A stretch of 64,000 bases of DNA, taken from sequence record NC_048205.1, one strand, 5' to 3'. The number at the start of each line of letters is the position of its first letter. The first letter of the stretch is position 1. The notes below the pieces were generated by a model. It searched no databases, was not told the DNA's origin, and saw only the letters and a list, made by a program, of their open reading frames with translations. The position numbers were made by a program, and so were the translations under genes. This DNA is from Escherichia phage vB_Eco_mar004NP2. Shown here in pieces: positions 2,535 to 20,897 of the stretch.

Positions 2535-3055
2535 TGAAAGTCTGCTTTTGGAGCGATCTACACTTAGGACATGCAAATATTACTAAATTCAGACCAATCT
2601 TCTCTACTATGGAAGAGCATGATGAATTTATTATGGATACTATTACATCCATGAAAGATAAGCGTACAGTATTTTATATTTTAGGGGATGCATTTGTATC
2701 TAGAAATGGTTTGGAGAAATTCGAAAAACTCTTTAGTAATGTTAGAACTACATTAGTTTTGGGGAACCACGACTTAGAACGAGAAGGGTTATCTTTCAAA
2801 GACTTAGTGGGAGTTGTAGATAACGTACAATCCCTAGTTAAGTATAAAAACTTTTGGCTTTCCCATGCTCCAGTACATCCAGAAGAGTTAAGGGGCAAGA
2901 AGAACTTACATGGGCATACTCACTTTGAGTTAATGGGGGACCCTCGTTATATTAACGTTTGTGTAGAGTATGCAAAATCACCAGTACGCCTGGAAGACAT
3001 CATGAATGGTAAGTACACTTCTCATGATAAAACTAGCTGGATGTTAAATGTCTAA
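2534..3055 (+). CDS. small metallophosphoesterase-like protein
   Basis: DLHLGH, GNHD, HGHTH motifs; 173 aa; start overlaps upstream stop. Confidence 0.55.
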   Translation: MKVCFWSDLHLGHANITKFRPIFSTMEEHDEFIMDTITSMKDKRTVFYILGDAFVSRNGLEKFEKLFSNVRTTLVLGNHDLEREGLSFKDLVGVVDNVQSLVKYKNFWLSHAPVHPEELRGKKNLHGHTHFELMGDPRYINVCVEYAKSPVRLEDIMNGKYTSHDKTSWMLNV

Positions 3056-3163
3056 GTATATAGCTGAGGTTATTATTAAACGAATTATACAGGCGATAGC
3101 AATACTTATAATCATTTGTATTGCTATTGGCACAGGATTAGGCATTTTAATTGAAAGTTTTAT

Positions 3164-3192
3164 TTGCTAAAATGCCTAAGTTTCTGTATAAT
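3164..3192 (+). promoter_or_regulatory. sigma70-type promoter TTGCTA-N17-TATAAT
   Basis: -35 at 3164-3169, -10 at 3187-3192; conserved TTTATAAATTGATGAGAAGG downstream box. Confidence 0.55.
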
Positions 3193-3222: not shown

Positions 3223-3654
3223 ATGAACAAAGTTGATAAAGCTCTAGTTTTCACAGCAGCAGATAAGTTTGAACAAGTTAAGGCAACTTTCCGAACCTTG
3301 TTCCAGTCTTACGTTCAGGATAAGTCTAATCCTATCTCTGAACGTTTGATGGTCTGGGAATGTCATGCATGCAATGCCTTATTAATTGCTGATTATCGTA
3401 GCGATATAGATAAAGATCTGTGCGAAATTCTTATCGCTGAGGAGGCAGAACGTTATCAGTTAATCTCTTTCCAAGATTTGGCAGAGCATATCATTCCCGA
3501 TGATCTTTGGGATAAATACTATGGTGATCCTGAAGATGAAGGAATGACTCCAGAAGCATGCATTGAGCTGATCTGCAAAGATCATCCTGAAATTGCAGAG
3601 AAATTTGAAAAAGTTTTTGCTTCTGAGTTCTCCGGCGTTGTTAACGATTGGTAA
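3223..3654 (+). CDS. hypothetical early protein (143 aa)
   Basis: ORF with RBS GAAGGA. Confidence 0.6.
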   Translation: MNKVDKALVFTAADKFEQVKATFRTLFQSYVQDKSNPISERLMVWECHACNALLIADYRSDIDKDLCEILIAEEAERYQLISFQDLAEHIIPDDLWDKYYGDPEDEGMTPEACIELICKDHPEIAEKFEKVFASEFSGVVNDW

Positions 3655-3671
3655 GTAATTAAAAAATTCAG

Positions 3672-3700
3672 TTGCTTTAAGCCTTAAAATTCTGTATAAT
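3672..3700 (+). promoter_or_regulatory. sigma70-type promoter TTGCTT-N17-TATAAT
   Basis: -35 at 3672-3677, -10 at 3695-3700; same downstream ATAAATTAATGAGAGAGG box. Confidence 0.55.
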
Positions 3701-3714
3701 AAGTTCATAAATTA

Positions 3715-3984
3715 ATGAGAGAGGAAATTCTAATGGAAAACATGACTAAAAATGAAATGGCTAACGTTCTGGCAATTCTCCTCGACATGCAGGGTTTTGA
3801 AGGCCAGCTCATGAAGATGTCTATTCCGGCAATGAAAAAGATGTACGATTCCCTGAATAAGAATGCTATGGCGTTCAACCTTGCAAAACAAGAAGCACGT
3901 TTTGCTAAAGAGCATCAGGCAACTGCCGAACGTCGTGCAGCATCTTTTGAGCGTGAAGTTAAGCAACTGAAAGGTAAGAAATAA
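3715..3984 (+). CDS. hypothetical protein (89 aa)
   Basis: ORF after promoter; basic C-terminus. Confidence 0.55.
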   Translation: MREEILMENMTKNEMANVLAILLDMQGFEGQLMKMSIPAMKKMYDSLNKNAMAFNLAKQEARFAKEHQATAERRAASFEREVKQLKGKK

Positions 3985-4148
3985 TGGAAAGAATATCCAT
4001 TTTTATGCTATCACTCCTTTTAGGAGTGTTAATATATAGTATAGTTTCTCTTCACACACGTTTAGCAGAACTAGACAATTCTATCCACGAGTTAAATGTG
4101 GAGTTGTGTAAACTAGTTCCAAACAATGAAAAATGTAAGGATATTTAA
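3984..4148 (+). CDS. small single-pass membrane protein (54 aa), not in ORF track
   Basis: ATG overlaps upstream stop (TAATG); hydrophobic N-terminal helix then helical tail; coupled to next ORF. Confidence 0.4.
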   Translation: MERISIFMLSLLLGVLIYSIVSLHTRLAELDNSIHELNVELCKLVPNNEKCKDI

Positions 4149-4429
4149 TGTTGATTGAAATTCTTATTGGGTTACTAGTTCTTACTACACTAGTAGCGAT
4201 TGGTGGAGTTATTGGGATTGTGAATGCACGAAAAAACATGGAAAGTATGCTTAGTACTAATGATGGACTACACCACCGTTTGCTAGAGCAAGAGCAAGAT
4301 ATTGAATTAGCACAAAGACGCTCGGATATTCTTAAGGAAAAACTAAATAGTATAGAAGCAATAGTTGGGAATAATAAATTACCGGCTAAAGTAATGCGTA
4401 CACAGATAATCACGGAGATTAAAAAATGA
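4148..4429 (+). CDS. small membrane protein with coiled-coil tail (93 aa)
   Basis: N-terminal TM helix LIEILIGLLVLTTLVAIGGVIGIV then charged helix. Confidence 0.55.
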   Translation: MLIEILIGLLVLTTLVAIGGVIGIVNARKNMESMLSTNDGLHHRLLEQEQDIELAQRRSDILKEKLNSIEAIVGNNKLPAKVMRTQIITEIKK

Positions 4430-4671
4430 TGATGTTTATTCTAGCATTTTATCTAATCGTGGTGGGAGTTCTAGTTACTAAGTACCATACATGGGCACCA
4501 AAGAATGTAGTTAAGGTAGCACTATTTGTTATTCCAGTCCCACTTATTATACTTTCTATGTTACTGGTGATGTTAATTGGTAAAGTGACGAAGACCGATA
4601 TTAAACGCATTGCTGATGAATTGCAACAGTCTTGTGATATGGTAGAGGATATTCTTAAAGATGAAGCTTAA
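4426..4671 (+). CDS. small two-TM membrane protein (81 aa)
   Basis: two hydrophobic segments; ATGA overlap with upstream gene. Confidence 0.55.
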   Translation: MMMFILAFYLIVVGVLVTKYHTWAPKNVVKVALFVIPVPLIILSMLLVMLIGKVTKTDIKRIADELQQSCDMVEDILKDEA

Positions 4672-4987
4672 TTTTAATGAATTAAATACCTTACATGAGA
4701 TACTACAGTTTGTGAATAATAATATTAGCATTCCAGATGACACGCTAGAAGTTCTCATGTTAATCGAGAAAAAGGTAGGAATTGAAATTGAGGATTCTTG
4801 GAAACCACTTTCTGTATTAACACCACTTAATATGAAAGTGATAGTTAAAAATATTGATACTGGTGAAGAGTGTGAAATGATTCGTAAAGAACTAGCTGAT
4901 AGCTATTCACCAAAGTCTGTAGTAATGTACCATGATGATACCGCTAAGACTCTACAGACAGCTAATTATGTATGGCGTCTCCCATGA
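4661..4987 (+). CDS. hypothetical protein (108 aa)
   Basis: ORF. Confidence 0.5.
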   Translation: MKLNFNELNTLHEILQFVNNNISIPDDTLEVLMLIEKKVGIEIEDSWKPLSVLTPLNMKVIVKNIDTGEECEMIRKELADSYSPKSVVMYHDDTAKTLQTANYVWRLP

Positions 4988-5130
4988 TTGATTTAGTACC
5001 AATTACTGCGGGGCTAATAGCACTATTAGTGCTCGCAGTTTTCATTATTGTGGAGCAGGCCAAAGTAATAAGGAGACTTAAAAACAATGGTAAAACGTCT
5101 TGTTTATCAGGCACCAAAGATTGTAACTGA
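4984..5130 (+). CDS. possible small membrane protein (48 aa), not in ORF track
   Basis: ATGA overlap with upstream stop; hydrophobic core; overlaps next ORF start in another frame, so uncertain. Confidence 0.25.
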   Translation: MIDLVPITAGLIALLVLAVFIIVEQAKVIRRLKNNGKTSCLSGTKDCN

Positions 5131-5287
5131 GTATTTTGTATTACTGCCTCAGATTGTATTTCTAACAGCATTATTTAATATACTTTTTCGACATCTAGGA
5201 ATAACGGAAAATATCTTCTACACTTCTGGGCTACTTCCTTTTATGTACGAAGGCATCATCGTGGCAATTAACGGAGTTCGTAAATGA
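5087..5287 (+). CDS. small membrane protein (66 aa)
   Basis: strong RBS AAGGAGA; hydrophobic segment. Confidence 0.5.
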   Translation: MVKRLVYQAPKIVTEYFVLLPQIVFLTALFNILFRHLGITENIFYTSGLLPFMYEGIIVAINGVRK

Positions 5288-5745
5288 CAGCACTACAACA
5301 ACTACAGAATTACTGGTTTGATAACCAATTTAACGATCTCTTCATCCAGTTGTTTGTCGAAACGAACGGACGCTTCAACTACCGATTCTTTAATAAGTTT
5401 CACGAAACAAAATTCTCGCATACAGAAATTAATGCAGCAATCCAAGACCTAACTGGTTCTAAAGTAATTCAGTATCGTGAAGTAGACTTCACACCAGATT
5501 GTTTTGGGTTTGAATTGTTTAAGAAAGCGTATAAATTTGGTAAGTTTGAGGATGCTCGTCAATGGGTTCATGATTTCTGGTACAACACCGATATTGTCCC
5601 TAGTCGCGTGCTGATTCTTAACTGGATTGCTAAGCAACATCCACCTAAAACGCAATCATCCTTCTTACCGACTGACACAGGAAACCTCTACCATGACAGA
5701 AAAGAAAAACCCATTATTGGAGCAGATGAAGGAGTGGGAGAGTAA
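5284..5745 (+). CDS. hypothetical protein (153 aa)
   Basis: ORF, ATGA overlap with upstream gene. Confidence 0.55.
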   Translation: MTALQQLQNYWFDNQFNDLFIQLFVETNGRFNYRFFNKFHETKFSHTEINAAIQDLTGSKVIQYREVDFTPDCFGFELFKKAYKFGKFEDARQWVHDFWYNTDIVPSRVLILNWIAKQHPPKTQSSFLPTDTGNLYHDRKEKPIIGADEGVGE

Positions 5746-6064
5746 TATTGAAACTGGTCTAATAGACGGTGAAGATATTGTCAACTCCATGCTAGAAGTA
5801 ACAGTAGATAATATTAATCCTATTTTGGCTGGAGAAACCTCAGATCTTATAGGACTCTCTAGCACATTTGATTCTTTGGCTAAATTAGCTTTAGACGATG
5901 AAGATATAACCAAAGAAGATCTCGCTACAGCTATGAATATGGCTATTAATGCTTACATCGGTAAACGTACTGATGAACTTGGTAAACAGATCAATAAGCG
6001 TGATGCTACGCTAGGTCTTATGGAAACGGCCACTATGTTAAGAAGTGGTAAACAACTTCATTAA
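5693..6064 (+). CDS. hypothetical protein (start trimmed to MTEKK)
   Basis: ORF track start 5627 overlaps upstream gene by >100 nt; internal ATG with AGGA upstream chosen. Confidence 0.45.
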   Translation: MTEKKNPLLEQMKEWESNIETGLIDGEDIVNSMLEVTVDNINPILAGETSDLIGLSSTFDSLAKLALDDEDITKEDLATAMNMAINAYIGKRTDELGKQINKRDATLGLMETATMLRSGKQLH

Positions 6065-6071
6065 TTTTAGG

Positions 6072-6104
6072 AGGCCAGGACTTAGTTGTTCTGGCCTTTT
6101 ATGT
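6072..6104 (+). terminator. rho-independent terminator
   Basis: hairpin GGCCAGGAC..TCTGGCC followed by TTTTATGTTTT. Confidence 0.55.
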
Positions 6105-6120
6105 TTTCAAGGAACTTCAA

Positions 6121-6324
6121 ATGCAAGTATATGTCCTTACTAGAGATATAAATGAGTATAATCAGGATGGTGAGTATTTTGTAAAAGTATTCGCTGAAAA
6201 GCCAAGTAAACAACAATTATTAGATGCGGGGGTACCCGAAGACCAGGCTAAGTGTATACTACAAGATAAAGAGTTTACCGGGGATGCTTACGAATGTTTC
6301 TACCTTAACTGTGAGACTATTTAA
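6121..6324 (+). CDS. hypothetical protein (67 aa)
   Basis: ORF after terminator. Confidence 0.45.
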   Translation: MQVYVLTRDINEYNQDGEYFVKVFAEKPSKQQLLDAGVPEDQAKCILQDKEFTGDAYECFYLNCETI

Positions 6325-6325
6325 T

Positions 6326-6772
6326 ATGAGAGAGAAAGTAAATGAATTATTAATCGAGGAAGCTAACAACTTTCCAATAAATAGGTTCATCAAATCGGAT
6401 GGATCTATTAATAGAACTAAAATTAAGCAGCTACATCCCGACTTCCAACAAGAAGCACTAAACCTTATATTTATCAAGAAAGCTGTTGCAGCTCATGGAG
6501 CTTTCTTCGGGTATGAGCGTGTAAATTATAAGACAATGCAACAGCAAGTTGAGATCTATTGTCCAGATCACGATGGTTATTACTGGCAAACTGCTAGATC
6601 TCATTTAGAAGGTCATGGATGTCGACTGTGCGCACACAAGGTTGTGCAGCGTGTCACGGATTATGGAACTTATACCGTACCAGCATGTTACCATAAATTT
6701 GTAATTGACGATAATCATATAGTTTGGTATAATAAGTTTTCAAAGCTAAGAATGGAGATAAGTAGTGAGTAG
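6326..6772 (+). CDS. zinc-ribbon protein with homing-endonuclease-type CxxH..GxGCxxC motif
   Basis: YERVNYKTMQQQVEIYCPDHDGYYWQTARSHLEGHGCRLCAHK; same motif class as ORFs at 24721-25394; start trimmed to ATG 6326. Confidence 0.45.
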   Translation: MREKVNELLIEEANNFPINRFIKSDGSINRTKIKQLHPDFQQEALNLIFIKKAVAAHGAFFGYERVNYKTMQQQVEIYCPDHDGYYWQTARSHLEGHGCRLCAHKVVQRVTDYGTYTVPACYHKFVIDDNHIVWYNKFSKLRMEISSE

Positions 6773-7055
6773 CTATATTGTATGGTCAAACCCACTAGCA
6801 GCACTTAGTAACAAACTATTTAAAACAACGTGGGGGTATAATGAAATAGACTTAGGTAGTCGCCCAATACCAAACAAACACCCCTTAGTTCCAGAGCTGT
6901 ATAAGGTAGTGATAAATGGCACGGAGTATTTGGTTGATAAATTTGACAGAAAACGTTTACTAGAGGGTATCTACGATAATTCTACATCGATAAATGAATT
7001 AGTAGAACATGCCCAAATATACGATAAGAGCTGGATGTTAATATGGAGATCATAG
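6765..7055 (+). CDS. hypothetical protein (96 aa)
   Basis: ORF. Confidence 0.5.
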   Translation: MSSYIVWSNPLAALSNKLFKTTWGYNEIDLGSRPIPNKHPLVPELYKVVINGTEYLVDKFDRKRLLEGIYDNSTSINELVEHAQIYDKSWMLIWRS

Positions 7056-7276
7056 TAATTATTTTAGCAGTTATGTTATTTATTGTAACATTTGTATCGT
7101 TTGCTATTATGCGCAGAGCTATAGAACTAGCGGAAGATATAACAAAATTACGCGGTGAGTTGGCTGCTCTTAAACTACAACGTGAAGCCCTCAAGCTATT
7201 TGTAGCTCAAGGTAGCGTAGAGCATACAGCAGAAGACTTCATCATATATCTCAAACGTTACATGGGAGTTAAATAA
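7043..7276 (+). CDS. small membrane protein with coiled coil (77 aa)
   Basis: N-terminal TM helix plus heptad-like helix. Confidence 0.5.
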   Translation: MEIIVIILAVMLFIVTFVSFAIMRRAIELAEDITKLRGELAALKLQREALKLFVAQGSVEHTAEDFIIYLKRYMGVK

Positions 7277-7461
7277 TGGAAACTCTTTTTCTTTTAATGC
7301 TCGTAGGTTCCTTGCTAGTTATATTAGCACTTCTACTGATCTGCAATATTCTTAATAATAAGAATCTAGAGCTAAAGTGTGAGAACCAAATCCTTAACCG
7401 TGAACTTAAACAATATAATCTAGCAGCCCATAAACTGTTAGACAAACTGGAGAATAAATAA
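7276..7461 (+). CDS. small membrane protein with coiled coil (61 aa)
   Basis: TM helix LFLLMLVGSLLVILALLLI plus helical tail; coupled start. Confidence 0.5.
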   Translation: METLFLLMLVGSLLVILALLLICNILNNKNLELKCENQILNRELKQYNLAAHKLLDKLENK

Positions 7462-8063
7462 TGTTTACACAACAACCTATTCAAGTAGTACCAGACCATG
7501 AACTGAACACATGGGATTATAGCCTTAAAGATTTAACTGCTACTGTACAATTCAAATCTATGAAGCTAACATTTGCACACACTGACCTTAGAGCCTGTAA
7601 AGATCTTGAAGGTAAGCTCGAAGATGCTCGTAGGATTTTTGGCACGGCTCGCATCCCGGCTGATAACCTGATTAATGCACTAATCGATGCGGGATACAAA
7701 CTCGTGAAGACTGAGGTGAACCGCCCCAATACTCCAGTGACTATTAGAGACCCGTGGCAGTCAGGGCCAAATACAATGTGGAACAGCCCTAAAATAACGT
7801 CGGATTTGCACAATGTTCCTTGTGGGGGTGTGGTAAGTAGTACGAAGTCATATAAGTTTGGTGAAGATTATGGGCCTTCTGTACAGTTAAAGCATACCCA
7901 AGAAGCTCTTGAATCTGACATGAAAAGCGTAGCGCCTGCGGATACTGAAGGTTTTAGAAGTCCCATCTATGTTACTCACTTTAATAATCTTAGACCTGGG
8001 AGTATAAATGATACTATCCTTGAGGCGTTGGGAGCTGCTCTTAATGAGAGTAAAAAGGATTAA
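7461..8063 (+). CDS. hypothetical protein (200 aa)
   Basis: ORF, ATGA-type coupling. Confidence 0.55.
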   Translation: MFTQQPIQVVPDHELNTWDYSLKDLTATVQFKSMKLTFAHTDLRACKDLEGKLEDARRIFGTARIPADNLINALIDAGYKLVKTEVNRPNTPVTIRDPWQSGPNTMWNSPKITSDLHNVPCGGVVSSTKSYKFGEDYGPSVQLKHTQEALESDMKSVAPADTEGFRSPIYVTHFNNLRPGSINDTILEALGAALNESKKD

Positions 8064-8143
8064 TAATTTCCTAATACATGAGCCTCTACGGAGGCTCTAA
8101 AATAAAAAGAAGGTCATCCAGACCTTAAAAACGGGAGATAATA

Positions 8144-9028
8144 ATGTATAACTTTAAAGATAAACTAAGACAAAATGCTGGTAAAACAAAACCTAAAGAG
8201 AATAATAATGTTCCTAATGCCAAAGTATTACCATTTCCAGAACTGTCTCAAGAAGAAAAAGATAAGTTAGCATTTATGTTTGATGCTCTTCTAGGGCTAA
8301 GTGGACGTTTATATTCCTCACTCAATATTAATGAGAAACGTCTAGTAGAGATGTTCTGTAAACGTTACCAAGTTACTTCAAAGGGCAATTCTTATAAAGA
8401 AGGTGAAAAAGCATTTACAGTCTTAAAGATTAGCGCATATGCACATCGTTTCTTAGTTTATGGATTGCAAATGGAATACTTCACCATCCCATCATTTAGC
8501 TCTTTCCATATCTTTGAAGATGAACGAATGAATATTGATGATCTCTATGGGGATACGTACAAATACTCAGGAAGTCCATTCCACGATGCATTAAGGAGCT
8601 ACCCTACTAGTTACTTACCAGTTAGGGCATCTCAAGGTAAAGCTAGCGTTTTTGCTGTTTACTCAGGATCTAAAGCATCGGATCTAGAAACTTATATATT
8701 TAAAGAGCGTAAATCTGTACTTCCAGATGAAGCATTGTATAGCAATCCATTGCTTCCAGAAAAAGAACCAGAGAAAATTGATGTAACCCCACCAATCCCA
8801 TCTGATTCTCAATATTTAATTTATGAGAAACAAGTTAAGTTATCCCTAGAAATTGGGTTAGTTACACCGCTTGCTGCAGCGTTCATAAATAGATACCTAG
8901 AAATCCCAGATGAGTTCCACCAACGTTATAATACGAATATTCAGATAACGGATGAATTAATTGCGTTAGCAAAAGATACACCTACTGACACTGAGGCGTA
9001 TCAAAAAGCATACCAAGAGTTATTATAA
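8144..9028 (+). CDS. hypothetical protein (294 aa)
   Basis: ORF with RBS GGGAGA. Confidence 0.6.
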   Translation: MYNFKDKLRQNAGKTKPKENNNVPNAKVLPFPELSQEEKDKLAFMFDALLGLSGRLYSSLNINEKRLVEMFCKRYQVTSKGNSYKEGEKAFTVLKISAYAHRFLVYGLQMEYFTIPSFSSFHIFEDERMNIDDLYGDTYKYSGSPFHDALRSYPTSYLPVRASQGKASVFAVYSGSKASDLETYIFKERKSVLPDEALYSNPLLPEKEPEKIDVTPPIPSDSQYLIYEKQVKLSLEIGLVTPLAAAFINRYLEIPDEFHQRYNTNIQITDELIALAKDTPTDTEAYQKAYQELL

Positions 9029-9561
9029 TATTCTGCATGTCTCGGTGCACAATACCTGTACCGAGACTCAAATACAAACTCTCGTTGACAGATAGCTAAA
9101 TGTATGTTATCATAACTCTATGAGTTAATAGAATTAACCATTTAGAGTTGCCACACAGAAGGTGTGGTGGTTCAGTAATTTAAAATTACTAACTTGTAGC
9201 GGAGGATACGGAGCGACAGGACAAGTTAATAAGTAATTTAATATAAATTGCTAGAAACATCACGAGACCTTCTGGCGGGGGCAAAGCTCTATATGAGAAC
9301 CCTGGGGGATCTTATATTTAAAATAAAAGTAAAACTTTTGACCATATAATTTACATTCAAGATGATACACCTGTTGCCGCTCATCTGCTAGGATGGCACA
9401 ACACTTTCTTCTAGACTCCTAAGTTTCTAGGAAAACTCTTACACTCTAGGGCAGTTTCTCTCCAACGTTACATATCCTAGGCCGGTTTAATACAGGGCGG
9501 TTATTGGGAGGGCGGTTATTTCTAGAAGACATTTTTCCAAAACACATTTCCAGAAATTACT

Positions 9562-10163
9562 GTCGGATTCGCACATTGTGTTTCTAGAAATTTATGGTCG
9601 GATTTGCACAATTGCCTAAGTTTTCATGGACACATAATCTCCTGAAAATGGCAGCATTATTTCGGGCCGAAGGCCCATGATTGCCTGAGTTTTTAGAGCC
9701 ACAAGAATTTTCACTTGTCAAGCTATTTTGCCACCTTTAGCAAATAAAATTTTACTTTATCTCCACTAATCTCAAATTAACCCAAATCTTCTCAACTCTT
9801 CCCCCAAAAACGCAGCAAATCAGGCGTTGCACGCCACCCATGCTGCTCCTCCAGTTTCTCCACTTATTTTCTCTCGCTCTCTCATCTTCTCCTCAAACCT
9901 ATACAATCACACACCCTCCAATCGAAGTCACAAAAATCTTGTCGGATTCGCACATCTTAATCCTAGAAAAACCGTGTCGGATTTGCACATATCCCACAGG
10001 ATTCGAACGCAGTTCGAGATTGCTGGAGTTTTTGGGAAAATTCATTGTCGGATTTGCACACTATAAAAATTTTTGGGGTCGGATTTGCACACTACCAAAA
10101 ATTGTCGGATTCGCACATACACGCCCGCGCGTAATCCATGGTGGCAAATGTCGGATTTGCACA
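9562..10163 (+). repeat. array of 8 direct 14-bp iterons GTCGGATT(C/T)GCACA
   Basis: copies at 9562, 9597, 9941, 9976, 10047, 10078, 10104, 10150, all same orientation, irregular spacing. Confidence 0.85.
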
Positions 10164-10189
10164 AAAGCGCAGGGCAATTGCCCTGCGCT
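10164..10189 (-). terminator. perfect GC-rich palindrome; likely terminator for the minus-strand cassette
   Basis: AGCGCAGGGCAATTGCCCTGCGCT, 11-bp stem; on minus strand followed by TTTTGTG. Confidence 0.45.
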
Positions 10190-10190
10190 A

Positions 10191-10400
10191 AATACGAATG
10201 ATAATGAGAATCATTCGTATTTAAAAAGCGGAATAAGAATGATAATAGTTCTCATTTAGAAAGTGAAATGAGAATCAATCTCATTTAAGAAAGGGAATGA
10301 GAACTATTCAAAAAATGAAATGATTCTCATTTAAAAAATGGAATGATTATCGGTTAGATAGTGAAATGCGAATGATAATGATTCTCATTTAAGAATGGAA
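10191..10400. repeat. cluster of short palindromes AATGAGA-N-TCTCATT (hairpin/operator-like)
   Basis: at least 5 palindromic units read directly; extra copies at 10727-10747 and 19721-19738. Confidence 0.75.
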
Positions 10401-10420
10401 GCGAGAAACACTATTATTTA

Positions 10421-10530
10421 AGTTACCCACAGACTTATTAACAGCACGATTTGATTTGACAGAATCCTAGCCATTTTGAGGCGTTATCAACAGACTTATC
10501 CACAGCTTATCCTACTGTATAAATATACAG
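10421..10530. repeat. left arm of ~110-bp inverted repeat with DnaA-box-like sites and 16-bp palindrome
   Basis: reverse complement of 14001-14110 aligns with identical blocks AGTTAYCCACA..TTATTAACAGCAC and ACTTATCCACAG..TTATCCTACTGTATAAATATACAG. Confidence 0.8.
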
Positions 10531-11085: not shown

Positions 11086-11430
11086 TCATTGCGCCACCTT
11101 TCGAAACGCTGTTTCAATACTATCCGCAGTGGATTGAATATACGCGCCTTTCATTATCAGGCGCTCGGTGCATATCTTGCGAAAAATATTAATAAAATCA
11201 TCTTCATTTTCTGCAATTAACGCCTCACCCATGACCTGAACGTCGCAAGATGCAAAGGTCAAAAATTGAAACGCTAGTTCACGGGCAACGACCGCATTGA
11301 TTTTATAATGCGCCTTGCCTTCATAAATATTAATAACGCCCTTATAAGCTGGGGAAAGCTGATTTAAGTAGTTTGCTAGTAATGCCGGACGGCAATTAGC
11401 AACAAAACGATTGCCTTCATAAATTACCAT
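11086..11430 (-). CDS. hypothetical protein (start trimmed to MVIYEG)
   Basis: ORF; RBS GGGGAG before ATG 11430; abuts upstream gene. Confidence 0.5.
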   Translation of the reverse strand: MVIYEGNRFVANCRPALLANYLNQLSPAYKGVINIYEGKAHYKINAVVARELAFQFLTFASCDVQVMGEALIAENEDDFINIFRKICTERLIMKGAYIQSTADSIETAFRKVAQ

Positions 11431-11431
11431 T

Positions 11432-11644
11432 TTATAGCACTCCCCGAAACGCAGCGTAAAAGGTGGCAAAATGTTTAACTGTTTCAGCTATCACGTTGCC
11501 CCGTTTATCGAATTTTTTCTCGGTAACACGGAAGGCGTTTTTATTTCGCGCTACATATTCAATTTTACAATCTTCCCGCTCGAACGTGTTAACGTCCACC
11601 AGCTTAAAGCCTTTTGAACGTGCAAGGGAAACGTTACGAATCAT
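11432..11644 (-). CDS. hypothetical protein (70 aa)
   Basis: ORF. Confidence 0.5.
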   Translation of the reverse strand: MIRNVSLARSKGFKLVDVNTFEREDCKIEYVARNKNAFRVTEKKFDKRGNVIAETVKHFATFYAAFRGVL

Positions 11645-11646
11645 TT

Positions 11647-11796
11647 TTATTCTCCTTTACTAGTCATGCAGCCCAGCAGATAAGAAAATACAGCGATACC
11701 CGCACCAATAATAACCGCGTGAACGCCGAAAGCTATTGCAAAAAGTGATAAAATAGCGCCCAAGATACCTGCTAGAATAGCTCGAAAAATAACCAT
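11647..11796 (-). CDS. small membrane protein (49 aa), not in ORF track
   Basis: perfect RBS AGGAGG 6 nt before ATG; hydrophobic throughout. Confidence 0.45.
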   Translation of the reverse strand: MVIFRAILAGILGAILSLFAIAFGVHAVIIGAGIAVFSYLLGCMTSKGE

Positions 11797-11845
11797 TTGT
11801 GATAGCCTCCTAGTTATCGGGGGATATTATATCCCCCGTTATTAA

Positions 11846-12109
11846 TTACATTAAAACAATTTTTGCAGCTTGTTTTTTGGTGCAATGTTCCGCCTTCAGG
11901 GTATCCAGCAAAAAGCCAGCCGTTTGCTGATCGATTTTATCGGCGTTATATAGTTCCTGAATGGTATTATAGGTTTTAGCAATACCGAACTCCTGCACCA
12001 TTTCATAGATGACAGCACGATTAGATACCCAGCCTTGCGCGGTAAACAGATGACTAGCAGAAGAATAAGCAACCATTTTAAGCCTCCAAATTTTTGGGAA
12101 AATTTTCAA
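11846..12109 (-). CDS. hypothetical protein (87 aa)
   Basis: ORF. Confidence 0.5.
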   Translation of the reverse strand: MKIFPKIWRLKMVAYSSASHLFTAQGWVSNRAVIYEMVQEFGIAKTYNTIQELYNADKIDQQTAGFLLDTLKAEHCTKKQAAKIVLM

Positions 12110-19798: not shown

Positions 19799-20044
19799 TT
19801 AGCGCATAGAAGGGTCATCAAACCTGTATTCTGGTCTGAACTCACGGAATCTCTTCCGCGACGCCCGAGATCCATCCGACCACTCCCGCTCAAACTCCGC
19901 ACGTTTCTCGTCAAACTTCCGCTCCCTTTCCGCAATCTCCCGCGTCACTCCCGCAATATATTTACGATGCTTATTGATTGCCGCAGTCGTCCCGAAAACT
20001 CCCGTGAGTATCCCGATAATAAAAGCAATTACAATACTAAACAT
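19799..20044 (-). CDS. small membrane protein with charged helical tail (81 aa)
   Basis: TM helix FSIVIAFIIGILTGVFGTTAA; 8-nt overlap with upstream ORF. Confidence 0.5.
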   Translation of the reverse strand: MFSIVIAFIIGILTGVFGTTAAINKHRKYIAGVTREIAERERKFDEKRAEFEREWSDGSRASRKRFREFRPEYRFDDPSMR

Positions 20045-20231
20045 CTAATTCCCTCTCAATTTGCAGAATACGGGTACTATCACAGCGTTGAAGCTCTACT
20101 AATTTTTCTAGTGCAAATTGTTGCTGCTTTACCTGGGCCTCTAGAGTTTTTAGGCGAACATACGCGGTATAAGAAACAATGAAAATTGCCCAGATTAATA
20201 TTACTATTAATGTAGCTGCCACTTCCATCAT
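20037..20231 (-). CDS. small membrane protein with coiled coil (64 aa)
   Basis: TM helix plus heptad-like tail; ATGA overlap with upstream ORF. Confidence 0.5.
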   Translation of the reverse strand: MMEVAATLIVILIWAIFIVSYTAYVRLKTLEAQVKQQQFALEKLVELQRCDSTRILQIERELDV

Positions 20232-20335
20232 TTACGTTTCTCCAGCAATAAAGTTTCAATTCTAGCTAAGTGATTATCTAAAATACATTGCCCAATAATC
20301 ACAATCCCTAATAGTGCAATAATTACCCATTCCAT
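20228..20335 (-). CDS. tiny membrane protein (35 aa), not in ORF track
   Basis: translated by hand; TAATG overlap with upstream ORF, ATGA with downstream. Confidence 0.35.
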   Translation of the reverse strand: MEWVIIALLGIVIIGQCILDNHLARIETLLLEKRK

Positions 20336-20463
20336 TAAATCCACCCCGCCATAGCTGCTAACCAAAAACCTACGAAAATAAAGAATAGGAGAGTTCCGAA
20401 CCCAAAACTATTTATCCAACTCTCATACACCTCTCCGCGTCTATTATTTCTTTTGTTTGACAT
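20335..20463 (-). CDS. tiny membrane protein (42 aa), not in ORF track
   Basis: translated by hand; RBS GGAG upstream; hydrophobic C-terminal half. Confidence 0.35.
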   Translation of the reverse strand: MSNKRNNRRGEVYESWINSFGFGTLLFFIFVGFWLAAMAGWI

Positions 20464-20630: not shown

Positions 20631-20897
20631 TTACAGGTAATTAGATTGCTCTAGTTTAAATTTACAATCACCATATTTAAGGTCAAACTGACTGAGATCC
20701 CACCACCCAAATTTAGTACGGAGCTGTACTACTGGAAAGCGATCTCCCTTAATACGAACTTTTTGAACCTTGAGACCGTAATATTCTTCTCCCGCACCAC
20801 CAAAAGATTTTACAAATCCCGTACAAAATGGTTTGGGAGCAGGTACACAACCAGATAATATAACTGTGGCAACTAGTGCAATTACAAACTTTTTCAT
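20631..20897 (-). CDS. llp: Llp-like lipoprotein (receptor-blocking, superinfection exclusion)
   Basis: signal peptide plus lipobox LSGC; 88 aa; divergent from receptor-binding protein gene, as in T5 llp/oad. Confidence 0.65.
   Translation of the reverse strand: MKKFVIALVATVILSGCVPAPKPFCTGFVKSFGGAGEEYYGLKVQKVRIKGDRFPVVQLRTKFGWWDLSQFDLKYGDCKFKLEQSNYL

Follow-up and report, generated by a model that had tools for sequence, protein, structure and literature searches.

Small predicted single-span membrane proteins with helical tails in the early and llp-side regions of a T5-like phage

The early region of Escherichia phage vB_Eco_mar004NP2 contains several very small open reading frames that appear to encode a single N-terminal transmembrane (TM) helix and a polar tail, and two further ORFs near llp resemble them. 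A first-pass annotation suggested that these proteins might be holin-, antiholin- or spanin-like, or else membrane-targeted host-takeover factors. Are they genuine genes, what do they have in common, and which of these roles is best supported? We addressed these questions in a 64,000-nucleotide stretch of sequence record NC_048205.1, referred to below as the window.

Conserved genes in overlapping chains

The window comes from a T5-like phage (Tequintavirus) that is approximately 94% identical to T5. The four early ORFs, whose positions and strand we confirmed, are orthologs of T5.031, T5.030, T5.021 and T5.020 (92–96% protein identity, with lengths, order and overlaps unchanged), and the llp-side pair corresponds to T5.161 and T5.162 (Table 1). 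All six are thus already known as annotated T5 hypothetical proteins, each with a single transmembrane domain noted in T5 RefSeq NC_005859, and nothing material differs from T5.

Table 1. Features of the window, with PHROG assignments and transcript levels of Bas33 orthologs (PMC13250531). The bas33_0164 row was identified by name (P0180), the others by gene length and synteny.
Feature	Coordinates	Strand	Description	PHROG	Bas33 ortholog (TPM)
Early promoter region, upstream of T5.032 ortholog	3652..3712	+	TTGCTT, 17 nt, TATAAT; ATAAG discriminator region		
T5.031 ortholog	3984..4148	+	54 aa; predicted N-terminal TM, leucine zipper, C-terminal CX8C	29567 (unknown function)	
T5.030 ortholog	4148..4429	+	93 aa; predicted TM ~5–25	4984	bas33_0155 (~535–623)
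T5.029 ortholog	4426..4671	+	81 aa; two predicted TM segments, acidic helical tail; Pfam DUF7442		
52-aa ORF	4972..5130	+	Unannotated in T5 RefSeq; predicted N-terminal TM, short basic tail; VEQAKVIRRLKNN		bas33_0158 (~140)
Sigma-70 promoter-like site, within T5.023 ortholog	6705..6733	+	TTGACG, 17 nt, TATAAT; extended -10 TG		
T5.021 ortholog	7043..7276	+	77 aa; Pfam DUF7237; predicted TM 3–22	6021	bas33_0164 (~154–159)
T5.020 ortholog	7276..7461	+	61 aa; very hydrophobic predicted TM 4–22, helical tail	5799 (unknown function)	bas33_0165 (~366–369)
T5.162 ortholog	19799..20044	-	81 aa; predicted N-terminal TM, highly charged basic tail	6447	bas33_0187 (~13–22)
T5.161 ortholog	20037..20231	-	64 aa; predicted N-terminal TM, helical tail	5851	bas33_0188 (~408–462)

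The early genes had been described as translationally coupled in pairs. Start/stop overlaps do exist (TAATG at 3984, 4148, 7276 and 7461, and ATGA at 4426, the last coupling the T5.029 start to the T5.030 stop), but they join the genes into two unbroken five-gene chains, T5.032>031>030>029>028 and T5.023>022>021>020>019, rather than isolated pairs, and both chains also contain soluble proteins. The first chain would be driven from the putative promoter upstream of T5.032, a region matching promoters annotated in T5 and AKFV33, and T5.022>021>020>019 would be driven from the promoter-like site within T5.023, which agrees with 11 of 12 consensus positions and coincides with a T5-annotated promoter. 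Orthologs are transcribed in Bas33, where at 20 min they stand at TPM 150–620, on par with neighbouring genes (PMC13250531).

Homologs were found in T5-like phages only, as for all 105 homologs of T5.030, and a search of 1.84 billion representatives with T5.021 returned seven matches, five of them true family members. Phage records carrying the short T5.031 number 143 versus 479 for T5.030, and 353 for T5.021 versus 429 for T5.020; given these unequal counts the pairs are not obligate. T5.031 is present in approximately 30% of T5-like records, its gene being a variable, dispensable slot in which relatives carry a different protein, an HNH endonuclease or nothing. Matches to T5.021 and T5.020 are almost restricted to phages of E. 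coli and Salmonella, and the locus fetched from a Klebsiella T5-like phage is without this pair; the T5.032-T5.030-T5.029-T5.028 module, including T5.029, is kept in a Klebsiella T5-like phage. The genes are therefore dispensable or replaceable in related phages. In a CRISPRi-ART screen of T5 all of them scored 'Not Fit', as did the endolysin and structural genes, with only 17 of 162 genes scoring 'Fit' (PMC11879866); the screen is insensitive, and the result therefore carries little weight.

A paralogy test detected no homology among the membrane proteins, and they therefore represent separate lineage-restricted orphan families. No above-threshold match was obtained in Pfam (DUFs aside), PHROGs (other than unknown-function entries), NCBIfam or PADLOC, nor in the PDB by sequence or fold. 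The match of T5.162 to LapA_dom is weak (E = 2e-4; 21.6 bits, under the cutoff of 28).

A common build and its predicted topology

All six proteins, including the llp-side pair to which the first-pass annotation had ascribed the same build, have a strongly hydrophobic N-terminal segment that begins at residue 1–5 and is followed by a polar helical tail. In each early protein a hydrophobic 19-mer with its first position at residue 3–7 combines a Kyte-Doolittle mean of 2.4–3.2 with a summed Hessa free energy below zero, so that by computed hydrophobicity these segments are membrane-competent. Among genes of at most 120 aa in the window, only these six join an N-terminal TM segment to a non-TM tail 25 aa or more in length, a build that occurs in 6 of 32 genes but in 3 of 102 ORFs read in shadow frames (Fisher p = 0.006). 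More tellingly, TM residues differ between orthologs yet remain hydrophobic, under dN/dS of 0.08–0.2.

AT-rich DNA favours hydrophobic codons, and the three shadow-frame ORFs that start with a hydrophobic stretch raise the possibility that the set consists of chance ORFs rather than genes. However, purifying selection acts on all six (dN/dS 0.08–0.23, with dS up to saturation; 0.08–0.2 for T5.030, 0.15 for T5.161 against T5 and 0.23 for T5.162), lengths are exactly kept across genera, and orthologs are transcribed. Together these observations refute the chance reading for T5.030, T5.029, T5.021, T5.020, T5.161 and T5.162; divergence data for T5.031 are thin, and for the set as a whole we give this reading practically no credence. 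The six ORFs are real, conserved genes for tiny predicted inner-membrane proteins with a helical tail. The 52-aa ORF at 4972–5130, annotated in Bas33 as bas33_0158, probably belongs to this architectural class as its seventh member: it is present at every T5-like locus examined, and selection on it is specific to its frame (dN/dS 0.11–0.36, versus 1.0–2.1 in the other two frames).

AlphaFold2 models of T5.030 and T5.021, which are monomers of low pTM (0.43–0.46) and uninformative on assemblies, combine TM segment and stalk in one long helix followed by a short C-terminal helix. These span residues 2–74 and 80–92, separated by a loop, in T5.030 (pLDDT 91.7), and residues 2–55 (TM plus about four heptads) and 63–73, separated by a QGS loop, in T5.021 (pLDDT 85.2). 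When each tail was compared with 2000 shuffles of itself, heptad periodicity was significant in T5.031 (p ~0.001–0.0025) and T5.021 (p ~0.008), marginal in T5.020 (p 0.04–0.10) and T5.162 (p ~0.025), and not significant in T5.030 (p 0.05–0.23) or T5.161 (p 0.07–0.24). These results support an amphipathic helical tail in all six proteins and a coiled coil in two. The proposal that the four early ORFs share a TM helix with an amphipathic or coiled-coil tail thus stands for the helices, but the coiled coil does not extend beyond T5.031 and T5.021.

Invariant tail motifs hold over up to 97 homologs. The T5.031 zipper comprises about three heptads (L23/L27/L30/I34/L37/L41/L44) and precedes an invariant C-terminal CX8C motif, E-x-C-K-x-x-P-x-N-E-K-C; T5.030 carries TN.GL at residues 37–41 and a C-terminal TEIKK. 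In T5.021 the last 35 residues are nearly invariant, and two divergent N-terminal allelic types are fused to this one C-terminus. The conserved tail of T5.020 reads NLEL.CENQILNRELKQ.N.AA.KLLDKLENK, with Leu and Asn at heptad positions.

Across the families no Lys or Arg lies ahead of the TM segment, versus two to five behind it. Applied over up to 97 family members, the positive-inside rule predicts an N-out/C-in orientation, with a cytoplasmic tail, for T5.030, T5.021, T5.020, T5.161 and T5.162. The topology of T5.031 is ambiguous under this rule, and its tail may face the periplasm.

Alternative readings: lysis, exclusion and anti-defence

The idea that the proteins are themselves holin or spanin components fares poorly. 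T5-like genomes encode a complete lysis set upstream of the window, consisting of the holin T5.041/C1, the endolysin T5.040 and the Rz-like o- and i-spanins T5.044/T5.045; T5.041/C1 is a T4-type class III holin (Pfam Phage_holin_T, E = 8e-114). The six proteins show no resemblance to the holin or either spanin of the T5 type and no sequence similarity to spanins, and no lipobox ORF that might serve as o-spanin partner lies within or next to either cluster. The build does recall class III holins and Rz-type i-spanins (lambda Rz, T5.045/Shivani gp47), the latter likewise being small and bitopic in the inner membrane, with their TM helix at the N-terminus and a soluble part that is helical and partly coiled coil. 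However, Rz-type i-spanins adopt an N-in/C-out orientation, and their coiled coil lies in the periplasm and reaches an outer-membrane lipoprotein; the orientation predicted for most of our proteins is the reverse of this, as it is of class III holins and the RI antiholin. Moreover, the T5-type i-spanin has 141 aa, a basic N-flank and a lipobox o-spanin partner, compared with 54–93 aa and no partner lipoprotein here, and helices of 32–68 residues would measure about 5–10 nm (~0.15 nm per residue), short of spanning the periplasm. T5.021 and T5.162 also gave sub-threshold profile matches to the TM-plus-zipper proteins FtsB/DivIC and FtsL (E = 0.03–0.06; 13–15 bits versus curated cutoffs of 29–55), with which they share the gross build of a TM helix and leucine zipper; the divisome proteins FtsB and FtsL insert N-in and carry their zippers in the periplasm, whereas T5.021 and T5.162 are predicted to be N-out/C-in, and the similarity goes no further than composition and architecture. 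We consider the holin or spanin reading largely refuted and very improbable.

The antiholin suggestion keeps some ground as a regulatory role, mainly for T5.031, in which one or more of the proteins would tune lysis timing as a non-homologous antiholin or accessory of the T4-type holin. The T4 antiholins RI, membrane-tethered and periplasmic, and RIII, cytoplasmic, are likewise small accessory proteins in a phage with a T-type holin, and both serve to control this class III holin, T. RI combines a membrane segment at its N-terminus with a small helical domain that carries a pair of Cys residues, features that loosely resemble T5.031, whose invariant CX8C and basic residue ahead of the TM segment are compatible with a periplasmic, disulfide-bonded tail. 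If so, T5.031 could bind the periplasmic domain of the holin, and the N-out/C-in proteins could bind its cytoplasmic N-terminus. The T5-type holin, a Phage_holin_T member, is described as a close homolog of gpt, itself under the control of RI in the periplasm and RIII in the cytoplasm (PMC12894885); RI and RIII are not annotated in T5-like phages, the proteins scanned gave no match to an RI or RIII family, and our early genes share the strand of hol-lys and lie about 3.5–8 kb downstream of it. On the other hand, they do not adjoin the lysis cassette, the T5 proteins have no sequence or profile similarity to RI, RIII or any other antiholin, and cytoplasmic tails are predicted for five of the six. 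T5.031 is patchy in distribution while the holin is described as conserved in the lysis cassette (PMC4342426, PMC12894885), lysis inhibition in T5 has been called ambiguous and probably negative (PMC12737510), and a CRISPRi-ART phenotype, weak evidence in itself, is absent. On balance, holin regulation appears improbable.

Two further readings would place the proteins in conflicts outside lysis. Small inner-membrane exclusion proteins such as T4 Imm, T4 Sp and HK97 gp15 are well known, and our proteins might block DNA entry of T5-like or other phages at the inner membrane, complementing the receptor-blocking Llp. The llp-like lipoprotein gene is directly followed, on its own strand, by T5.159–T5.162, PHROG 6447 of T5.162 ('membrane protein') is classed as 'moron, auxiliary metabolic gene and host takeover', and the genes are dispensable, expressed early and different between relatives. 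Nevertheless, homology to known exclusion proteins is lacking, the early-region genes are not close to llp, and cytoplasmic tails are unsuited to a periplasm-facing Sp-type mechanism, which leaves superinfection exclusion unlikely. The early expression, dispensability on laboratory K-12 and mosaic, fast-turnover loci, exemplified by the alternatives in the T5.031 slot and the two T5.021 N-terminal types, would also suit a role in anti-defence, in which the proteins would neutralise host immune effectors or sensors associated with the membrane. Yet known anti-defence families are unmatched, the PADLOC matches being noise, and T5-like genomes are commonly mosaic near homing endonucleases, irrespective of what the genes there do; we view anti-defence as unlikely, and slightly more so than exclusion.

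A proposed membrane-tethered accessory role

Membrane-targeted host takeover is the most plausible candidate among the roles first suggested, and the features described above permit a mechanism to be outlined. A hydrophobic helix starting near the first residue would anchor each protein in the cytoplasmic membrane and, judging by the T5.030 and T5.021 models, may run unbroken into an extended polar stalk. An acidic N-terminus of very few residues, together with the basic residues that follow the TM segment, points to N-out/C-in insertion of T5.030, T5.021, T5.020, T5.161, T5.162 and ORF 4972–5130, which would leave the tail on the cytoplasmic membrane face. An exposed helix of 30–50 residues is unstable alone, and therefore the tails most likely self-associate or bind a partner, contacts that could be made through the heptad stretches and the invariant C-terminal motifs (TEIKK in T5.030, EDFI.YLKRYMGIK in T5.021 and KLLDKLENK in T5.020). 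Apparently expressed from genes transcribed from early sigma-70 promoters within tightly overlapping chains, the proteins would then modulate a host or phage membrane-associated protein from their tether.

Precedents exist among small bacterial membrane regulators and small phage host-takeover proteins, to which the proposed accessory role would be analogous. AcrZ, MgrB-type proteins, SPO1 gp56 and phiX174 E are about 30–90 aa long, have one TM segment and act through binding to a larger protein of the membrane. An N-out/C-in orientation with a cytoplasmic tail, the topology predicted here, is reported for AcrZ and phiX174 E. None is homologous to the T5 proteins, and we draw the comparison as a mechanistic analogy rather than to place the T5 proteins in a family.

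To the existing T5 annotation this analysis adds a topology prediction, a model of the helical stalk, the invariant motifs of the tails, a paralogy test and family distributions. It shows that the genes are real and conserved, that their orthologs are transcribed, that the proteins have a hydrophobic anchor and a helical tail, and that they have no homology to any characterised protein; their orientation in the membrane, their oligomerisation or binding to a partner and their regulatory role as accessory factors are inferred. With a probability of roughly one half, the six proteins, or seven with ORF 4972–5130, would be membrane-tethered accessory modulators of one build and no detectable common ancestry, standing outside the core lysis machinery of T5-like phages.

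Small conserved genes in the early gene chains

Over positions 3700-7600, the sequence shares 94% identity with phage T5 (reverse strand of NC_005859, 12365-16271), and with other Tequintavirus genomes the identity reaches 98.7%; the genes are numbered here after their T5 orthologs. The T5 record already states 'contains single transmembrane domain' for each of T5.031, T5.030, T5.021 and T5.020. These proteins, their single TM domains and the Pfam family of T5.021 (DUF7237) are known already, and in detecting them the first-pass annotation correctly rediscovered hypothetical membrane proteins that had been annotated before. The four genes had also been described as translationally coupled in pairs. 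Start/stop overlaps are present (TAATG at 3984, 4148, 7276 and 7461; ATGA at 4426), but they link two five-gene chains, T5.032>031>030>029>028 and T5.023>022>021>020>019, each with its own sigma-70 early promoter ahead of it, so that the arrangement goes beyond 'pairs'. On the opposite strand, a longer ORF overlaps T5.020.

Positions of the small membrane genes and neighbouring features
Feature	Position	Strand	Annotation or location
T5.031 ortholog	3984-4148	+	T5 and BF23 annotations, 'hypothetical protein'
T5.030 ortholog	4148-4429	+	T5 and BF23 annotations, 'hypothetical protein'
T5.021 ortholog	7043-7276	+	T5 and BF23 annotations, 'hypothetical protein'
T5.020 ortholog	7276-7461	+	T5 and BF23 annotations, 'hypothetical protein'
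T5.159 to T5.162 orthologs (four tiny membrane ORFs near llp)	19799-20463	-	3' of the 88-aa lipoprotein gene
T5.161 ortholog	20037-20231	-	
T5.162 ortholog	19799-20044	-	
40-aa ORF	3048-3170	+	overlaps the end of the phosphoesterase gene
52-aa ORF	4972-5130	+	unannotated in T5 RefSeq and Shivani
T5.026 ortholog	5284-5745	+	RNA-polymerase-binding protein
Terminator-like hairpin	6068-6101		
T5.024 ortholog	6121-6324	+	directly after the hairpin
Repeat region	9555-10510		terminal-repeat boundary
Lipoprotein, 88 aa	20631-20897	-	adjoins the receptor-binding protein gene
Receptor-binding protein, 585 aa	20983-22740	+	

Orthologs of T5.030, T5.021, T5.020 and the neighbouring T5.029, which has two TM segments, are collinear and of equal length in T5, BF23 and five Epseptimavirus genomes, with dN/dS of 0.08-0.2 at dS values up to saturation; the residues of the TM segment vary among orthologs while its hydrophobicity is kept. 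Near llp, T5.161, T5.162 and T5.159 give dN/dS of 0.09-0.23 against T5. In RNA-seq of the related Tequintavirus Bas33 at 20 min post infection (PMC13250531, Dataset S01), the orthologs are transcribed at levels like those of their neighbours: T5.030 (bas33_0155) at a TPM of about 535-623, T5.020 (bas33_0165) at about 366-369, T5.161 (bas33_0188) at about 408-462 and, at a low level, T5.162 at about 13-22, these four rows being matched by gene length and synteny, and T5.021 (bas33_0164, its identity confirmed by name via P0180) at about 154-159. The Bas33 counterpart of T5.024, bas33_0162, has a TPM of only about 2 between same-strand flanking genes above 700, and this low value could be a mapping or annotation artefact.

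Two further small ORFs were found in the same region. The 52-aa ORF encodes an N-terminal TM segment and a basic tail, VEQAKVIRRLKNN, is kept in all T5-like loci examined, is under purifying selection specific to its frame (dN/dS of 0.11-0.36 in frame versus 1.0-2.1 out of frame), and is annotated in Bas33 as bas33_0158, which is transcribed at a TPM of about 140. The gene is probably genuine but under-annotated. The 40-aa ORF is very hydrophobic; it is annotated in BF23 (BF23_00035), a 40-aa gene is called at the equivalent Bas33 position, and it is 87-90% conserved in Tequintavirus, with a stop codon in the matching Epseptimavirus frame.

In the CRISPRi-ART screen of T5, T5.020, T5.021, T5.030, T5.031 and T5.159-T5.162 were all scored 'Not Fit', i.e., without a fitness effect (PMC11879866, supplementary file 16). 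This is weak evidence for dispensability, because the T5 screen was insensitive: only 17 of 162 genes were 'Fit', and the endolysin and structural genes were missed (PMC11879866). The sole 'Fit' gene of its region was T5.026 (PMC11879866), which encodes the RNA-polymerase-binding protein of Klimuk et al. 2020 (PMC7472727). Natural variation is the more telling pointer to dispensability. T5.031 is swapped out or missing in many relatives, the T5.021/T5.020 pair is absent from the Klebsiella T5-like locus that was fetched, and matches to both members of this pair are nearly restricted to phages of E. coli and Salmonella. Comparison with the equivalent positions in five other loci identified the slot that the T5.032 and T5.030 orthologs flank as a mosaic hotspot, occupied in some phages by a 52-54-aa CX8C protein, in others by a TM protein of 124-140 aa that has two cysteines (PHROG 13127) and in Bas33 by an HNH homing endonuclease, and empty in Klebsiella phage K7_rec13.

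Dense repeats at the terminal-repeat boundary include at least eight copies of GTCGGATT(C/T)GCACA, a second family of Fur-box-like AATGAGAAT...CATT palindromes and DnaA-box-like TTATCCACA, and the region matches the one annotated in T5 as 'injection stop signal'. Next to the llp-side cluster, the receptor-binding protein is not of the T5 pb5 type, and the adjoining lipoprotein (lipobox LSGC) is not of the T5 Llp type; the DNA here has no match to T5. The best matches of the receptor-binding protein are in SPLA5b, poul124 and JLBYU43 (94-100% identity), and the most distant T5-like ones share about 30%. The receptor is therefore probably one other than FhuA.

A common build with helical tails

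All six proteins, that is, the four early ones and the llp-side pair T5.161 and T5.162, carry a hydrophobic 19-mer starting at residue 1-7 (Kyte-Doolittle mean 2.3-3.2) with a negative summed Hessa insertion energy, followed by a polar tail of 30-70 residues; a hydropathy scan found no second hydrophobic segment in any of them. One insertable segment of at least about 19 residues predicts a bitopic (single-pass) inner-membrane protein, in agreement with the T5 annotation. Among the genes of the window encoding up to 120 aa, 6 of 32 have this build, versus 3 of 102 shadow-frame ORFs (Fisher p = 0.006), and the six are exactly those named in the first-pass annotation. The proposed extension to the two largest of the tiny ORFs near llp thus stands, as T5.161 and T5.162 pass both the hydropathy scan and this census.

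The tails had been read as coiled coils. AlphaFold2 models built on family alignments consist of one helix over residues 2-74, a five-residue loop and a helix over 80-92 for T5.030 (pLDDT 91.7), and of a helix over 2-55, a loop and a helix over 63-73 for T5.021 (pLDDT 85.2). For a coiled coil we required heptad periodicity beyond composition over at least 3-4 heptads, judged against 2000 shuffles of each tail. Periodicity was significant in T5.031 (p about 0.001-0.0025), a textbook case of an L-x6-L zipper spanning three heptads, and in T5.021 (p about 0.008), marginal in T5.020 and T5.162, and not significant in T5.030 and T5.161. An N-terminal TM segment with a helical tail therefore describes the build, but the coiled-coil reading is supported only in part, by the periodicity of T5.031 and T5.021.

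Conserved motifs lie in and around these tails. T5.030 has an invariant acidic E4 ahead of the TM segment, TN.GL just past it and a C-terminal TEIKK. T5.021 occurs with two sharply divergent N-terminal halves, comprising the TM and juxtamembrane part (MEIIVIIL... versus MEYVLIIL...), joined to 35 nearly invariant C-terminal residues, QREALKLFVAQGS.EH..EDFI.YLKRYMGIK, which suggests modular recombination inside a single 77-aa gene. T5.020 retains NLEL.CENQILNRE..Q.N.AA.KLLDKLEN, and T5.031 has the invariant motif E-x-C-K-x-x-P-x-N-E-K-C. With such invariant motifs the tails resemble modules for specific interactions more than generic spacers. In the few genomes compared, the TM segment of T5.020 varies in parallel with the N-terminal form of T5.021.

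Charge distribution around the TM segment allowed a prediction of topology. T5.030 (n=97) and T5.021 (n=74), and likewise the smaller sets of T5.020, T5.161 and T5.162, lack K/R ahead of the TM segment, where one acidic residue is usual, and carry 2-5 such basic residues within the 15 positions that follow it. By the positive-inside rule, this bias predicts an N-out/C-in orientation with cytoplasmic tails for these five families. In T5.031 and the longer proteins of its slot, a basic residue precedes the TM segment, the flank that follows is acidic and two cysteines are conserved; this pattern makes a periplasmic tail possible, and the topology of T5.031 is ambiguous.

Relationships and the lysis readings

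The recurrence of this build is one of shared architecture, not paralogy, as judged by sequence comparison. A single paralogous family was rejected, since all-against-all HHalign gave a top probability of only 12.8% and the six proteins fall into six separate PHROGs, none of known function. Of 50,697 phage records searched by tblastn, 479 contain T5.030, among them Klebsiella T5-like phages whose copies share about 38% identity, 429 contain T5.020, 353 T5.021 and only 143 the short T5.031. A word-indexed search of 5.8 billion proteins with T5.030, T5.021 and T5.031 returned nothing beyond T5-like phage proteins. When T5.021 was run exhaustively as an HMMER profile over 1.84 billion representatives, 7 matches came back, five of them genuine family members; the other two were judged spurious, one being due to a repeated tyrosine-phosphatase motif and the other to an apparent giant repetitive protein, so read from its size and 21 matched stretches.

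Searches of Pfam, PHROGs, NCBIfam and PADLOC yielded solely DUFs, families of unknown function and sub-threshold noise, such as FtsL/DivIC, LapA_dom, the MS2 lysis protein and YneF. Membership in FtsB/FtsL/DivIC was rejected at E = 0.03-0.06 and 13-15 bits versus cutoffs of 29-55. Solved structures gave no significant match by sequence or by Foldseek (every E > 0.7); the best shape analogue of the T5.030 model is the EB1-like dimerisation domain, which we take as a hint only. In the collection of papers searched, none mentions the genes in connection with a function, and HIDEN-SEQ does not extend to T5.

Holin- or spanin-like roles had been proposed for these proteins, and on several counts they do not fit: the lysis set lies elsewhere, family matches and a lipobox partner are lacking, and the predicted topology is mostly the opposite one. 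Two annotations, that of the T5-like phage Shivani by CPT and the revised one of T5 used for CRISPRi-ART, put the lysis genes upstream of the window: the holin is T5.041/C1, the endolysin T5.040, the o-spanin T5.044 and the i-spanin T5.045. The T5-type holin, which adjoins lys and is at 11206-11862 in Shivani, outside the window, matches Pfam Phage_holin_T (PF11031; E = 8e-114), the T4 'T holin' family. A holin identity for the focal proteins was rejected for want of any holin-family match, the sole such match being that of T5.029 to Phage_holin_6_1 (E = 0.63). With respect to spanins, the proteins matched no PHROG or Pfam spanin family, BLASTP of the four early ones against the Shivani i- and o-spanins returned nothing, and a six-frame scan of 3600-5400 and 6700-8200 found no o-spanin lipobox ORF; near the third cluster, the only lipobox ORF is the llp-like gene (20631-20897). 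Unlike them, the T5-type i-spanin has 141 aa, a basic N-flank and a partner with a clear lipobox, and the N-in/C-out topology of an Rz-like i-spanin is contradicted by the predicted cytoplasmic tails, T5.031 being ambiguous in this respect. Tails of 32-68 residues and the mostly cytoplasmic predicted orientation depart from the defining features of spanins and class III holins.

Membrane-tethered accessory proteins as the preferred reading

These proteins are most likely several unrelated, lineage-restricted, early-transcribed accessory proteins. Each would anchor a helical interaction module at the inner membrane, mostly on the cytoplasmic side. Since a long helix cannot well stay exposed without partners, they probably form oligomers or attach to a membrane-associated protein of the host or the phage. 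Small membrane regulators of bacteria and small host-takeover proteins of phages offer the closest analogies.

Alternative functions can be envisaged for such tethered modules. They may act in superinfection exclusion, a role for which position favours the llp-side cluster, or in anti-defence. Holin regulation is a further alternative. The T5-type holin has been described as closely homologous to T4 gpt, which is under the control of the antiholins RI and RIII (PMC12894885); none of the T5-like loci examined has an annotated RI/RIII homolog, and lysis inhibition in T5 has been described as ambiguous and probably negative (PMC12737510). T5.031 is the best candidate for such a regulator, because its tail carries the invariant CX8C and may face the periplasm, and a protein with a cytoplasmic tail could act by a second route, on the N-terminus of the holin. 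Nonetheless, we consider it very unlikely that one of these orphan membrane-tethered proteins is a non-homologous regulator of the T-type holin.

Relative to the existing annotation, the additions are incremental: an absence of paralogy, a predicted N-out/C-in topology, helical-stalk models, invariant tail motifs, the variable T5.031 slot and the unannotated 52-aa member. If holin regulation were true, T5 would gain a cryptic control of lysis timing, and the old ambiguity over its lysis inhibition would be closer to settled. A large share of the functional unknowns of virulent phages are small single-pass membrane proteins, with T5 having at least seven in a 64-kb stretch. As those described here are real, conserved, mutually unrelated and not part of the core lysis machinery, the range of useful experiments becomes narrower. 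Should one of them prove to be a regulator of the T-type holin, or to act on a membrane complex of the host, it would represent a new small-protein inhibitor.
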